A DNA stretch of 64,000 bases from a virus (Duplodnaviria > Caudoviricetes). How positions within the stretch are numbered: position 1 is the stretch's first letter; each line of letters opens with the position of its first letter. The stretch spans positions 192,001 to 256,000 of the IMG/VR virus record IMGVR_UViG_3300028549_001457. One strand, written 5' to 3'. The translations under genes were made by a program, and so were the position numbers. This document shows positions 5,629 through 60,571 of this stretch, in pieces. The notes under the pieces are model-generated. The model searched no databases, was not told the origin of the DNA, and saw only the letters and a program-made list of their open reading frames with translations.

Positions 5629-6029
5629 TTTGGAGCCCCTCTAAAGGGAACTCCATGCTTACCGAAGAATATCTTTGGAATGTAGATGCTTGTATGATAT
5701 ACTCTTTAGTTAGAAGCCCTCAAAGCCTCTACACACCTAATCTCATAATGGAGTAGTTATGAACTACGAAACAGATATTTCCTTTACCTCGGATTCTTTT
5801 TCGAGTGGGCCACCTGGAATGTTTCCAGAAATCCTCCGAACCCCACATAAAATCTATGACATTACGGACCTTTTCAAGGGTTTTGTCGAAATAGATGCTC
5901 CCGAGTTACAATTTTAAGTTTCCTGGATATTTTAGAAATACCATCCGTATCTTACCTTGTTGGCCCCGATGGTTCGACTCCCACTGGGGCCAGTTTCTTT
6001 GAAAATGCTATATTGCATAGAATGATACT

Positions 6030-7216: not shown

Positions 7217-7331
7217 TTTTACGGCACATTTTTCTGAACCTTTTTGAAATTTGTGCCGTATCTTAAACTAGTCCCCTGAGGGGGCGTTGAATCCTTGAAA
7301 ATTTGGCAACATATTTAAGTAAACTAACTAT

Positions 7332-7844: not shown

Positions 7845-8240
7845 ATGAATTTTACTGCAAATACCCTTTCCGAAATCTGCACGATGACTGCAACCTCGCT
7901 AAAGATTGTGTTTCCGGATCAGGATTGGACTGTGCTTCCCGAAATAAGTCCTGATAAGGGGCAAGTGGGTCTTTTCATCGCTACAATGAAGCCAGGGACC
8001 GAAAATGTTGTGGTTTCTCGTCCCATGGTTAGTATTCTGACCCCTTGGGAACTCAACAAGCATGAATTGCTTGTTGAGCTTGTGGGTGCGTTCCAGAAGG
8101 AACTCAGCGCACTAAATACCCCTGCTAGCGAAGAGGCCGCAGGAAGCCCACCCAATCCCCTGGTTCCCAGGGAATTTGTTGAGGGGGCTCCTAAGCGAAA
8201 GGGTAGGCCAGTAGGTTCAAAGAATACCCCAAAATCTTAA
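7845..8240 (+). CDS. hypothetical protein with C-terminal AT-hook-like KRKGRP
   Basis: 131-aa ORF followed by a GC hairpin at 8253-8275. Confidence 0.6.
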   Translation: MNFTANTLSEICTMTATSLKIVFPDQDWTVLPEISPDKGQVGLFIATMKPGTENVVVSRPMVSILTPWELNKHELLVELVGAFQKELSALNTPASEEAAGSPPNPLVPREFVEGAPKRKGRPVGSKNTPKS

Positions 8241-8293: not shown

Positions 8294-8669
8294 GGGGGTG
8301 CCATGGTTTTGACAGGTTGTTTATTTGAAGAGTAGTGCAGGTAGGGGTGGGCTGGCCCCTTTAATAAGCCCAAAAGCTATAACTGCCGAAGACACAATGC
8401 TTCTTCAGGCTGCGTAAGCAGCAACCTCTTAGTGAGCGTTTGGTAACTAAGTTGTATGTTCTTCAGAGGGTGGATTCGTCCTACTGATGGGGGATAACAG
8501 ACTGGACTCCGGTGACGCTTTCCTAGCCTGAGTTAAGAGCGTAGAGAGCAAGTCCTTGAATAGGGTTAGCCCAACTCCCTATAGAGGTCACGAAAAATGG
8601 GCTAAACCTGTGAATGAATTACCTTTAGAGGCTTCTTGGACATCGGTTCGATTCCGATCACCTCCACCA
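8294..8669 (+). ncRNA. ssrA: tmRNA, tag AEDTMLLQAA* (8385-8417)
   Basis: GGGGGTG/CACCTCC + ACCA with G3.U70, GGTTTTGAC, resume context ATAACT-GCC, T-arm TCGGTTCGATTCCGA. Confidence 0.93.
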
Positions 8670-8694
8670 TTTGGGTTTAACCGCCCACGGGGAA

Positions 8695-8851
8695 TGCTAG
8701 TGCCCCGCCGTAGTCACGATGTACCCCTAACAGTGGAAACACTGGGCCTGGAAGCGAGTCCCTTCGGAAAAGCTACTAACTGAGAATAAATCCTACTGTA
8801 ACCAATCAGGTGGACGAAAACAGTCACCCTGTAGCACTAGCAACCTTTTTT
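8695..8851 (+). ncRNA. candidate ~150-nt structured RNA C
   Basis: 9-bp closing stem TGCTAGTGC/GCACTAGCA, internal CAGTG-GAAA-CACTG and GGTGGAC/GTCACC hairpins, T-tract. Confidence 0.45.
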
Positions 8852-8853
8852 AT

Positions 8854-8881
8854 GTCTCCCGTAAAGGGAGTGGATTGAAAC
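8854..8881 (+). repeat. solitary CRISPR-repeat-like unit 1
   Basis: GTCTCCCGTAAAGGGAGTGGATTGAAAC: hairpin plus the type I 3' handle TGGATTGAAAC; no array. Confidence 0.6.
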
Positions 8882-8981
8882 AAGCACGTTTCTTCGTGTT
8901 ACCCTATATGTGGGTTTCGGGGGATTGCCGTGGGCGGCACAGCACCGCAACGAGTAAGGCTGCGTTAGTGCCTTTTATTAA

Positions 8982-9056
8982 GCCGTAGTAGCTCAGGGGT
9001 AGAGCCCTGGTTTTGTAAACCAGTTGTCGGGGGTTCAAATCCCTCCTACGGCTCCA
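8982..9056 (+). tRNA. trnT: tRNA-Thr(UGU)
   Basis: GCCGTAG/CTACGGC + TCCA, CTGGT-TTTGTAA-ACCAG. Confidence 0.95.
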
Positions 9057-9071
9057 AGTTTAAGGACACAA

Positions 9072-9509
9072 ATGAAAACCATCATAGCAGGGTCCAGGGA
9101 AATTGAAGATTACTCTCTAGTAGAAGCCGCTGTCGCTCAATCTGGTTTTACCATTACAGAAGTAGTTTCTGGAACCGCTAGGGGTGTAGATAGATTAGGT
9201 GAAGAGTGGGCTGCGCGACACGGGGTTCCAGTCAAGCGTTTCCCAGCTAACTGGGATGCTTACAAGAAAGAGGCTGGTTTTATTCGTAATGAAGAAATGG
9301 GTCTTTATGCGGAAGCTCTTGTAGCGGTTACAAATGGTTCCAGAGGAACCCAGCATATGATCGACTATGCAACAAAACGTGGGCTAAAGGTTTTTATTTT
9401 TGAAGATCCCACACCGTCATTAATCGCTGCTTTTAACGCAAGTCCAGAAGCGAAAAAATCGTTGCTAAATGCTAACATACACATCCGAAGATCGTCTGAC
9501 TTTGAATGA
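9072..9509 (+). CDS. SLOG-family (DUF2493/YspA-like) protein
   Basis: MKTIIAGSR...VVSGTARGVDRLGEEWA...AGFIRNEEM...GSRGTQHMI; ATG 9072 lies after the tRNA. Confidence 0.85.
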   Translation: MKTIIAGSREIEDYSLVEAAVAQSGFTITEVVSGTARGVDRLGEEWAARHGVPVKRFPANWDAYKKEAGFIRNEEMGLYAEALVAVTNGSRGTQHMIDYATKRGLKVFIFEDPTPSLIAAFNASPEAKKSLLNANIHIRRSSDFE

Positions 9510-9577
9510 GGCTGTCATGAACGCACCCACTGAAAGTCCTCCTGCTTAGGTCAAATTGACCAAGTTGGAGGTGCCAA

Positions 9578-9998: not shown

Positions 9999-10058
9999 TA
10001 GTTACTAGGGCTGGATTTATCGGGAATTTCTACCGTATCTTTCATTGAGGAGACTCGC

Positions 10059-57112: not shown

Positions 57113-59654
57113 CTCCGTAGAACGTATCCTGGCTGTGACCGATATGATGGCATCAGTTCAGGCGGCTTCCCCTGGGGAGAAGGATGCAACGGGTTTCAGT
57201 AATGCTGATTTTCCGCTTGGAATGGTTCTATCCGTGACAGGGGACGTAGAGAAATCTGCGGCCCTGCTTTGGCTCTACACGGGTCAGGCTGAGGGGCACG
57301 GGATCTTGAAAGCGGATCTTTTGGAGCATTTGCCGGAAGATTTCGATGGGAGTAGGGCTTCCGCTAGAACCATTCTCAATGATGCCCGAACTAATCTTGA
57401 GGGCAAGCTAGGCTTCGTTGCTACTGAGTCTGGGGTGATTTTTAATGGGGTTCGTCTTGGCCTTGAGACCACTCGTTCCTTGAAACGGCTGGGTGCTACC
57501 AGAACCTCTACGGGATGGTTGCTAGCTAACTCTCGGGTGCAGGAGGCTACCCGTGTCCTTGGTGCAACCATTCTCCATGCTGAAGCTCTGGAATCAATTA
57601 TTGAGTCTTGCCCTCAGATGGTTATCCCTACTGGATCTCTTCCAGAAAAACAGAAGAATGGTATCACCTTTACTGTCTCAGAGAATACTGTCAGTTGGAC
57701 GTATTCTAGTGCCAACCCCCTGTTTGGACAGATTAAGGATATCGTGAAGAGTATTGGAGCGCGATACAATGGTGCGGGGGGTTGGGAAATGAAACCCGAG
57801 AATCTTTCCGTGCTAGCTCTGACCATGCTTGACCTCAACCTGGATAAGGTGGACACCTCTGCTCTGGAACCTTTTGTCACTTCGGACCCTGAAATTCAGG
57901 CTCTGAAAGAAGAAATTGCAACTAACTCTTTGCGCGTCAAGCTTACCAAGGTTGGTGAGAACAAGGTTAAGCTCTCCATTCGTAAGTATCAGGAGAATTT
58001 CATCAGCGTTTGTCGCAACGCACAGGGACGTTATGATGGTGCGGGTGGATGGGTGGTTGATCAAACCTCTATCCCAGCTATTGCGGCGTCTCTCGCAACC
58101 AATCCTCAGTTTGATACCTCTGCGCTGGATGCTTTCCTGCCTTCGGAAGCTGATCTTGAGCATCGCCTTGCTTCGGATTCTGCCATCCCCACCAAGACTC
58201 CCACAGGGTTTAGTCTTTTCCCCCATCAGGTTGATGATGTGGCCTTTTTGATCAAACCTGCGGCTGATGCCAAGGGCTGTTCCAAGTTGCTTGGCAATGA
58301 CATGGGGACGGGCAAGACCCTGTCAAGTCTAGTGGCTGCAAACTTTAAATGCCCAACCGGGCGTTTCCTGGTGGTCGTTCCTGCTGTAGCCAAGCTTAAC
58401 TGGGCTAAGGAAATCAAGAAGTGGATTGGTGCAGAGGAGAAGATTCAGGTGGTCGTTGGTCGCAGTGCGACACTGGACCCTGCGGCTCGTTGGACCATCA
58501 TCAATTATGACATCATCAGCTATTACAAAGACGCTCTTATGAGCGCAAAGTTTGATATCGCTATCCTTGATGAGTGCCATCAGATTAAGACCTATTCAAC
58601 CCAGAGAGCGGCTGCACTGATTCCTACGTTTAATCGCACCACGCAGACCATGGATAAGGCAATTCTTTCGAATATTCCTAATGTCTGGACGATGACCGGA
58701 ACCTTCATTATGAATAGAATGAAGGAACTCTTTACCACCCTTCGTGCTGTTGACCACCGATTGGGTCGGTCTAAGCGTCAATTTGAAGAACGCTACTGTG
58801 GCGGTGAGTCTCGCTATGTTGGTCATGGGCGCACGGTTTGGATGGCTAATGGTGCCTCCAACCTTCCCGAGTTGGCTTCTAAGTTGGCCCCCATCTATCG
58901 TAAAGTTATGAAGGTGGATGTTCTTAAGGACCTCCCCAATAAAATGCGTGATGACTTCCAGGTCGAAGTTTCCAACAAGGATTTGATGGAAATCCGTAGA
59001 CTGGAACGGGCTATTGAACTGGCCTTGGAAGGTGCTGACGAAGAGGACGAGGCTCCCTGCATCCTGCCTTACATTACGGAAATGAAGATTGCTACAGCTA
59101 GAATGAAGGTGGAAGCTACTCTGGCTGAGGCTGATGCTGTAGTTGACGCTGGGAACAAGGTGATTATTTTCACTGAGTATACTGATGTTTTGCAGAGTAT
59201 CCTTGAGCACTTCGGTGAAAAAGCTGTATATATTGATGGCTCCATCACGGGGGCTAAGCGGGAAGCTTCGGTAGAAGCCTTCCAAGACAACCCGGAAATC
59301 CGTGTTCTAGTAGGTAATATCAAGGCTTGCGGTGTGGCTATTACTCTGACTGCTGCCAGCCATGTTATCTTCAATGATAAGCCTTGGAACCCTGCTTTGG
59401 CTGCTCAGGCTGAAGATAGGGCCTACCGCATTGGTCAAACTAAGAGTGTTAACATCATTTATATGACCGCTCCTGGAACCTACGATGAGCAACTCTCTGC
59501 CAAACTCCTCGAAAAGTCCACTCTAGTCACTAACTGGGAGTCCATGACCGAGGCGGAAGTTCAAGCTTTGAACCCTCGCTCTGAAATGGAAGAGATTATT
59601 ACTTATATTCGTAGTAAGAGAGTTGGACTTCCTATATATTCTCACCGTATCTAG
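57105..59654 (+). CDS. SNF2/SWI2-family (HARP-like) helicase/translocase
   Basis: DMGTGKT, ILDECH, MTGT, KVIIF, HVIFND.PWNP...QAEDRAYRIGQ; three N-terminal G(A/Q)R(Y/T)..GGW repeats. Confidence 0.93.
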   Translation: MTNSVERILAVTDMMASVQAASPGEKDATGFSNADFPLGMVLSVTGDVEKSAALLWLYTGQAEGHGILKADLLEHLPEDFDGSRASARTILNDARTNLEGKLGFVATESGVIFNGVRLGLETTRSLKRLGATRTSTGWLLANSRVQEATRVLGATILHAEALESIIESCPQMVIPTGSLPEKQKNGITFTVSENTVSWTYSSANPLFGQIKDIVKSIGARYNGAGGWEMKPENLSVLALTMLDLNLDKVDTSALEPFVTSDPEIQALKEEIATNSLRVKLTKVGENKVKLSIRKYQENFISVCRNAQGRYDGAGGWVVDQTSIPAIAASLATNPQFDTSALDAFLPSEADLEHRLASDSAIPTKTPTGFSLFPHQVDDVAFLIKPAADAKGCSKLLGNDMGTGKTLSSLVAANFKCPTGRFLVVVPAVAKLNWAKEIKKWIGAEEKIQVVVGRSATLDPAARWTIINYDIISYYKDALMSAKFDIAILDECHQIKTYSTQRAAALIPTFNRTTQTMDKAILSNIPNVWTMTGTFIMNRMKELFTTLRAVDHRLGRSKRQFEERYCGGESRYVGHGRTVWMANGASNLPELASKLAPIYRKVMKVDVLKDLPNKMRDDFQVEVSNKDLMEIRRLERAIELALEGADEEDEAPCILPYITEMKIATARMKVEATLAEADAVVDAGNKVIIFTEYTDVLQSILEHFGEKAVYIDGSITGAKREASVEAFQDNPEIRVLVGNIKACGVAITLTAASHVIFNDKPWNPALAAQAEDRAYRIGQTKSVNIIYMTAPGTYDEQLSAKLLEKSTLVTNWESMTEAEVQALNPRSEMEEIITYIRSKRVGLPIYSHRI

Positions 59655-60161: not shown

Positions 60162-60197
60162 GTCTCACCACCTAAACAGTGGTGAGTGGATTGAAAC
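60162..60197 (+). repeat. solitary CRISPR-repeat-like unit 2, followed by (AAAC)5
   Basis: GTCTCACCACCTAAACAGTGGTGAGTGGATTGAAAC, 36 nt, 8-bp stem CTCACCAC/GTGGTGAG. Confidence 0.65.
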
Positions 60198-60253: not shown

Positions 60254-60571
60254 GTGAATTCAATTACAACTCCAACGCTCAAGGATCTACCCCCACCTCC
60301 TGAAAAGAAACACCTCAGACAGTTCTCGATCTGGTCTGAAGGGTATATGGCTTCAGGGGATAGAGCCACCGCTCAATACCTTGGCACCTCCTGGGGAGAA
60401 ACTTTTGAGGAAGCTTGTCAAAATTTTGCAACTCCAGAAGTCCAAAAACACTATGGGAGCTTCACCCCAAATCCCCCTGCACTTTGGGGGTGTAGGCTCT
60501 ATGATAATGAAGTAGATGCTAGGCGATTTGAGCATCGGTATGGGTTCTCAGAAGATAAATCTGGCTGGTAG
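60254..60571 (+). CDS. conserved phage hypothetical protein
   Basis: GGGAGG RBS; IWSEGY.ASG...WGCRLYDNE.DAR. Confidence 0.7.
   Translation: MNSITTPTLKDLPPPPEKKHLRQFSIWSEGYMASGDRATAQYLGTSWGETFEEACQNFATPEVQKHYGSFTPNPPALWGCRLYDNEVDARRFEHRYGFSEDKSGW

Follow-up and report, generated by a model that had tools for sequence, protein, structure and literature searches.

[quoted passage not shown] As kinds of phage element, SRUs and RNA anti-CRISPRs (Racrs) are already known (PMC10651486; PMC11656645). SRUs have been described in viruses, and the Racr mode of action has been demonstrated for RacrIF1 and RacrIC1, of which RacrIC1 is the experimentally active type I-C example (PMC10651486). Type I-C repeats have a 2-nt 5' overhang, a stem-loop and an 11-nt 3' overhang, with a canonical length of 32 nt and a 7-bp stem; Cas5c reads the base of the stem, the UGG and the rest of the handle, while the loop and the upper stem are tolerated (PMC8524198). 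Another phage-borne RNA element, the VIPR vrRNA, is made up of 9-16 YNNGG repeats with a structured 3' tail (bioRxiv 10.64898/2026.04.26.720920).

The locus described here belongs to a 279-kb jumbo phage from microbial mats, whose record (278,785 bp) is 95% complete. The stretch analysed, called the window, comprises 64,000 nucleotides and corresponds to bases 192001-256000 of that record; positions refer to the window unless they are marked as genome positions. A solitary type I-C-like repeat, unit B, lies between a tmRNA gene and a tRNA-Thr gene, and two further units, A and C, lie elsewhere in the same genome (Table 1). We interpret unit B, with somewhat better than even confidence, as an SRU and putative Racr-like RNA decoy for host Cas5c/Cascade that is carried within a stable-RNA transcript.

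The solitary repeat and its surroundings

The initial annotation had placed a repeat of the form GTCTCCC-GTAAA-GGGAG at 8854, directly behind a T-tract and ahead of tRNA-Thr(UGU), and the unit and both neighbours were found there. Its end coordinate of 8935 overshoots the repeat, as homology to the other copies stops about 5 nt on either side of the unit. The hairpin of unit B is the predicted fold of its sequence at -8.4 kcal/mol, and two of 200 shuffled sequences folded equally well. From the biochemistry of Cas5c (PMC8524198), a cut would be expected between 8870 and 8871. The T6 tract in front of the unit is not a classical terminator, since no stable hairpin lies directly ahead of it.

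Table 1. Features of the unit B locus and the two further units of the phage (window positions unless marked as genome)
Feature	Position	Strand	Description
Unit A	genome 174756-174786	+	31 nt; stem 6 bp; loop CUAAAC; ends ...GAAAT (one change); 17 kb upstream of the window
Nearest promoter-like motif upstream of unit B	7226-7264	+	matrix scan; 1.6 kb away; next site downstream at about 10035
tmRNA gene	8294-8669	+	ARAGORN; Rfam RF00023, 124.5 bits; 3' end 184 nt before unit B
T6 tract	8846-8851	+	ends 2 nt upstream of unit B
Unit B, solitary type I-C-like repeat	8854-8881	+	GT / CTCCC / GTAAA / GGGAG / TGGATTGAAAC; 28 nt
Unit B 5' overhang GU	8854-8855	+	2 nt
Unit B stem	8856-8860 with 8866-8870	+	5 bp
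Unit B loop GUAAA	8861-8865	+	5 nt
Unit B handle UGGAUUGAAAC	8871-8881	+	11-nt 3' overhang
Small hairpin	8883-8900	+	predicted fold; 6 bp and 6-nt loop; begins 2 nt past the unit B handle
Terminator-like hairpin, then UUUUAUUAA	8956-8981	+	predicted fold; weak; ends at the first base of tRNA-Thr; absent from the consensus scan
tRNA-Thr(UGU)	8982-9056	+	starts 100 nt downstream of unit B
Unit C	60162-60197	+	36 nt; stem 8 bp; loop CUAAACA; overhang and handle as in unit B

The region around unit B also contains two nested pairs of perfect long-range complements, 8681-8690 with 8928-8937 (10 bp) and 8695-8703 with 8834-8842 (9 bp), which enclose the unit together with the 150 nt ahead of it. A single structured RNA spanning 8670-8981 was considered and rejected, its fold being no better than that of shuffled sequences (z = -0.78).

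Relation to type I-C CRISPR repeats

Metagenomes were scanned with a pattern of repeat end, 30-40 nt and repeat start. The scan returned at least 71 arrays whose repeats start with GTCTC and end with GAGTGGATTGAAAC, and the handle of unit B is identical to theirs. Among the matches listed, arrays of the same kind also occur in two viral contigs and in one Marinacidobacterales genome. Scans of genomes and viral contigs with the bare 14-mer gave mostly single chance matches, and a hairpin filter left a few arrays and lone units among the matches listed. In one metagenome contig (L280), an array of GTCTC...GAGTGGATTGAAAC repeats is directly preceded by genes matching Cas3, Cas_Cas5d (1.7e-37), Cas_Csd1 (4.3e-106) and Cas_Cas7 (1.5e-82), a set that, as assigned by these family matches, is a type I-C operon (cas3-cas5d-csd1(cas8c)-cas7). 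The earlier assignment of the unit to a Cas5d-class repeat is thus upheld by array repeats with the same ends, one array of which adjoins cas3-cas5d-csd1-cas7.

Folding of natural array repeats with these ends gave a 2-nt 5' overhang and an 11-nt 3' overhang in all 13 cases; these repeats are 32-37 nt long, with stems of 7-10 bp and GC-rich loops of 4-6 nt. Unit B has the same 2- and 11-nt overhangs, a U-G-G after the stem and the end ...AUUGAAAC, as in the type I-C layout, while its 28 nt and 5-bp stem fall short of the canonical size of about 32 nt and 7 bp. None of the Rfam CRISPR repeat families reached its threshold for unit B, the best being CRISPR-DR9 with 16.6 bits against 45 (E = 0.5). 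Judged by its ends and layout, unit B is a type I-C repeat mimic. Units A and B are both shorter than every one of the 13 natural repeats sampled, and with a stem of only 5 bp, recognition of unit B by Cas5c is not assured.

The phage itself appears to carry no CRISPR machinery of this kind. The 95%-complete record contains no match to the Cas_Cas5d or Cas_Cas7 families; the Cas_Csd1 search of the record was also empty, but its control matched in no genome either, so that this result is uninformative. A genome scan for regularly spaced repeats found no CRISPR array, the only such repeats being collagen-like coding repeats near 149 kb. As a single repeat in a virus without a Cas5d or Cas7 match, unit B can be classed as a viral SRU.

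A family of three units

Two exact matches to GAGTGGATTGAAAC lie in the window, one at 8868 and one at 60184, each on the + strand. A pattern search of the whole genome added unit A to these, with no matches for the reversed-pattern control, so that the two copies of the initial annotation became three, spaced 26 and 51 kb apart along the genome. The stems of units A, B and C measure 6, 5 and 8 bp, and all 19 of their pairs are Watson-Crick. In the alignment, unit C equals unit A with one additional internal A-U pair and one additional apical C-G pair, and unit B equals unit A without its apical A-U pair. The overhangs, the stem base CUC/GAG, the UGG and the rest of the handle are constant (with one change in the handle of unit A), and the variable parts are the loop and the upper stem. 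The loops themselves are A-rich and have UAAA in common (CUAAAC, GUAAA and CUAAACA).

This series bears on several earlier claims about the pair at 8854 and 60162. The description of unit B as having a different, shorter stem with preserved pairing holds, with 5 against 8 bp, paired insertions and Watson-Crick pairs throughout. A 19-nt end said to be common to both units agrees at 18 of 19 positions as aligned, and becomes one continuous stretch only when the (AAAC)5 run of unit C is collapsed. The view that the copies diverged independently is not favoured, as the three look like paralogues, with a common loop UAAA and a TAT directly upstream of both A and B; they are more likely to be duplicates that arose within the phage lineage than separate captures. 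Otherwise the copies are homologous for no more than about 5 nt beyond the unit on either side, which rules out a larger duplicated module around them.

Because the stems differ in length by paired changes, with pairing and handle retained, selection on an RNA hairpin rather than chance, as originally proposed, is also our conclusion. The parts kept in A, B and C are the published Cas5c determinants and the variable parts are those that Cas5c tolerates, and this counts in favour of a decoy. The principal competing explanation is that the units are functionless relics: a piece of a host array would have been captured by recombination, duplicated and left to drift without selection. The unusually short stem of unit B, shorter than in any natural repeat sampled, is in line with such decay, but the three copies keep an exact or nearly exact 11-nt handle, the 2-nt overhang and perfect pairing despite paired insertions in the stem, and all three stand in the transcribed orientation. 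Further evidence on this question comes from related phages and is taken up below.

A fourth place in the genome, 266198-266211, contains TGAGTGGATTGAAA, which is the handle with one change; it has no hairpin and was not counted as a unit. It is followed immediately by the ATG of a gene that opens with a shared N-terminal tag.

Proposed transcription of the units

A recurring motif of the phage, composed of TGGAtTTTTt, about 13 nt and cCGTATCTa/t, was found in a matrix scan of the whole genome at 36 sites on the + strand and four on the - strand, mostly just ahead of genes or RNA genes. The sites include 5915-5953, 7226-7264, 10003-10041 and 59615-59653 in the window. With its strand bias, the motif appears to behave like a promoter of the phage's own. 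The site at 7226 is followed by an unassigned non-coding stretch and a small ORF, and then by the tmRNA; unit B comes 184 nt later, and a further 100 nt separate it from tRNA-Thr, behind which lies a YpsA-like gene ahead of the site near 10035. The only terminator-like call between the 7226 site and unit B is a weak one at 8158. Given this upstream motif and only a weak terminator call in between, unit B would most simply be part of a long stable-RNA transcript starting at 7226-7264, and the RNA with unit B would receive its 3' end through RNase P cleavage at 8982.

No recognised promoter lies directly upstream of unit B, the nearest motif being that at 1.6 kb, and this counts against a decoy; published SRUs are often promoter-proximal. 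One run labelled RNA-Seq, from wastewater, covers parts of the tmRNA and the tRNA and not unit B, and the stretch with unit B is covered by DNA contigs only, no RNA run being listed for 8294-9510.

Unit A belongs to the same RNA island, where its handle ends exactly at the point at which a tRNA-like element (Rfam tRNA, 29.4 bits) begins, and it has only a -10-like GTATCTT, 4 nt upstream. Unit C lies 515 nt past a promoter motif site, in the leader of a gene starting near 60254, and is followed by (AAAC)5. All three units are on the transcribed strand in non-coding stretches, two of them inside the tRNA/tmRNA/RNase P RNA island. The RNase P RNA gene of this island is of the bacterial type A and full length (268.5 bits; genome 174868-175209, L003:1596-1937); it starts 80 nt after unit A and lies among tRNA genes and a YrlA-like match.

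The initial annotation had named a promoter or recombination site as the alternative to an RNA element. Such a DNA-level site could be suspected from the upstream element of the promoter motif, which begins with TGGATT as the handle does, and from the T-rich stretch and TAT that precede units A and B. The promoter matrix built from the phage motif, however, gives no site at or near 8854-8881, where no -10 element stands at the right distance; a sigma-70 scan likewise found no site near unit B, and there are no paired inverted or direct repeats of the kind expected at a recombination site. Since paired changes preserve the hairpin, the unit is read as an RNA rather than a DNA site, and a function at the DNA level is highly improbable.

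Search for targets and hosts

A repeat handle followed by further sequence formally equals a 5' handle with a 'spacer', and unit B and its downstream sequence could in this way form a crRNA-like RNA that steers the host Cascade at a competing phage or at a host gene, in the manner of viral mini-arrays and regulatory crRNA-like RNAs. The suggestion that the downstream 35 nt or so match a protospacer was checked with a negative outcome in the collections searched. Apart from the repeat itself, a comparison of the 100 nt downstream of unit B with 50,697 phage records gave no match; matches within the phage's own genome did not exceed 17 nt, and the related contigs had none. The flanks of units A and C likewise matched nothing. 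As the downstream sequence of unit B matched nothing searchable, a guide role is without support. There is, moreover, no second repeat, and the would-be spacers have an unsuitable appearance: that of unit B opens with the hairpin at 8883-8900, placed just where a spacer would begin, that of unit A is the tRNA-like element and that of unit C is (AAAC)5. A hijacked guide is accordingly an improbable explanation. In the reverse direction, 1473 spacers, drawn from the 71 arrays with such repeats among the matches listed, were compared with the whole phage without a match, the best agreeing at 17 of 35 positions.

A VIPR vrRNA was also considered for the units and rejected, no period-5 GGY run being present at or near A, B or C. 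The genome has a single run of this kind, on the minus strand at 180632-180681 (L376:433-482), with nine YNNGG units of which eight are perfect. A -10-like GTATCTA comes before it and a 7-bp hairpin after it, and it stands between tRNA genes in antisense orientation. This arrangement agrees with what has been published for VIPR guide RNAs, and the run would be a better candidate guide than unit B.

Searches bearing on the host gave few leads. The nearest cultured relative by portal protein is an acidobacterial phage (36.6% identity), which carries no such unit. No close match to the phage tmRNA was found in two cyanobacteria or in 401 sampled Acidobacteriota, where the best reached 74% over 122 nt, and arrays with these repeat ends were found in one of 401 sampled cyanobacterial genomes. 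In the wastewater run labelled RNA-Seq, two contigs of 151 nt match the body of the phage tmRNA (window 8306-8625) without differences, and a third contig diverges after 8671. These contigs may come from the same tmRNA in another organism or from a relative of the phage in wastewater, and are a possible lead to the host.

Distribution among related phages

Related contigs were found through a protein database, single-protein scans of viral contigs with terminase and with Ro60 having found no relative. In two other mat metagenomes there are contigs identical to the phage throughout 8676-8952; they are the same phage and offer no variation with which constraint could be tested. In all six related contigs, the unit is absent within 10 kb of the shared Ro60 gene. 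In the closest of them (Ro60 74% identical), a tmRNA-like stretch directly joins the YpsA-like gene, and neither the unit nor tRNA-Thr is present there. That stretch (L244:6396-6785, from GGGGTGAC... to ...CCACCTCCACCA) was not called by ARAGORN. Elsewhere in the same contig, a CCCC/GGGG hairpin with TGGGTTGAAAT behind it, in a gene leader, resembles a degenerate unit. In a relative at 67%, the homologous tRNA-Thr is preceded by a small ORF, and the remaining related contigs contain neither an exact handle nor one with a single change.

Three of the related contigs (L382, L383 and L384) have about 60% GC and mostly bacterial-type genes, and may not be phages. Their Ro60 genes are 64-68% identical to that of the phage and lie beside arrays of 19-35 tRNA genes; these contigs may represent large mobile elements of another sort, or host loci.

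More distantly related is LR745208.1, a phage of 485 kb whose portal is 34.6% identical; it contains the exact handle five times and has at least four units in which a hairpin is joined to the handle, one of them 90.6% identical to unit B. The pattern across relatives is one of gain and loss in different places. Absence from relatives together with separate units in LR745208.1 points to a fast-turnover element of an arms race rather than a core processing signal. The same observations complete the case for and against a functionless relic: none of the related contigs examined has the unit and the identical mat copies provide no population variation that would show constraint, but another huge phage retains several such units. 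In view of the conserved hairpin and handle described above, we consider a drifting relic unlikely.

Three of the LR745208.1 units stand directly before start codons, being followed by ATG, AAAC-ATG or GTG, which hints at a link between the units and translation starts. This raises the question of a phage RNA signal independent of CRISPR, either a hairpin-plus-tail site for a phage factor or a leader element controlling processing or translation. Units that abut start codons, the handle-like stretch before the ATG at genome 266198 and a 3' arm GGGAG resembling a ribosome-binding site are all compatible with it. The match to the type I-C repeat, however, covers exactly the Cas5c determinants, no gene lies directly behind unit B, and relatives with the same RNA island lack the unit. 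A signal of this kind is given little probability, about as little as a hijacked guide.

Proposed mode of action

As a decoy, unit B would be transcribed in the sense orientation as part of an abundant stable-RNA transcript with the order ncRNA, tmRNA, unit B and tRNA-Thr, and the piece between tmRNA and tRNA would be freed by the enzymes that normally process tmRNA and tRNA ends. The host Cas5c would mistake the hairpin and UGG-AUUGAAAC for a pre-crRNA repeat, cut after the stem and stay on the 11-nt handle. Cas7 would then load on a non-guide RNA of about 100 nt that opens with a hairpin. In this way, Cas5c and Cas7 would be diverted from real crRNAs, as in the Racr mode. Transcription, processing, recognition by Cas5c and inhibitory effect are each inferred for unit B.

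A bolder proposal, which we hold to be rather unlikely, is that the units are more than passive decoys. Located in a stable-RNA operon and in the leaders of genes, they would turn transcripts of the phage into substrates for the host Cas5c, and Cas5c together with RNase P would produce defined, very abundant handle-bearing RNAs only in type I-C hosts. The result would be a sponge built into tRNA processing, and possibly also a CRISPR-sensing switch for the genes behind the units.

If the simpler decoy works, unit B would add a type I-C member from a jumbo phage to the small set of RNA anti-CRISPRs. Its delivery route would be the highly expressed stable-RNA operon of the phage, in which tRNA-processing enzymes would define the ends. 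The stems of 5, 6 and 8 bp may serve as a natural deletion series that marks the minimal features of a Cas5c decoy, which could be useful for small RNA inhibitors of type I-C tools. Should the unit do nothing, it would still mark past contact of the phage lineage with type I-C hosts.

Comparison with known systems

What the present locus adds to the known SRUs and Racrs is a third copy, a series of paired insertions, A-rich loops, a probable place in a transcription unit, assignment to the type I-C class, absence in relatives and negative guide and spacer tests. With natural type I-C repeats, unit B shares the overhangs, the UGGAUUGAAAC handle, the stem base and the U-G-G past the cut site. 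Natural repeats, however, stand in arrays with spacers and have GC-rich loops, whereas unit B stands alone and has an A-rich loop.

Viral CRISPR mini-arrays resemble unit B in being host-type repeats in viruses without cas genes; they differ in that two or more repeats flank a spacer directed against a related virus (PMC11656645), in contrast to the one repeat of unit B, whose downstream sequence had no match in the collections searched. Like the VIPR vrRNAs, which are tied to a RAMP-family protein, unit B is a phage-borne small-RNA element, but without YNNGG periodicity.

The closest described counterpart is RacrIC1. Its activity has been shown, and in a Bifidobacterium prophage it follows the acrIC5 gene at a distance of 11 nt, whereas unit B, a putative decoy without a known acr gene as neighbour, occupies the gap between a tmRNA and a tRNA in a jumbo phage; the paper on RacrIC1 makes no mention of tRNA (PMC10651486). 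The stem of unit B, at 5 bp, is also shorter. In common with RacrIC1 and other SRUs, unit B is a single repeat in a virus without cas genes, with a type I-C hairpin and handle in the sense orientation of a non-coding stretch that would be transcribed.
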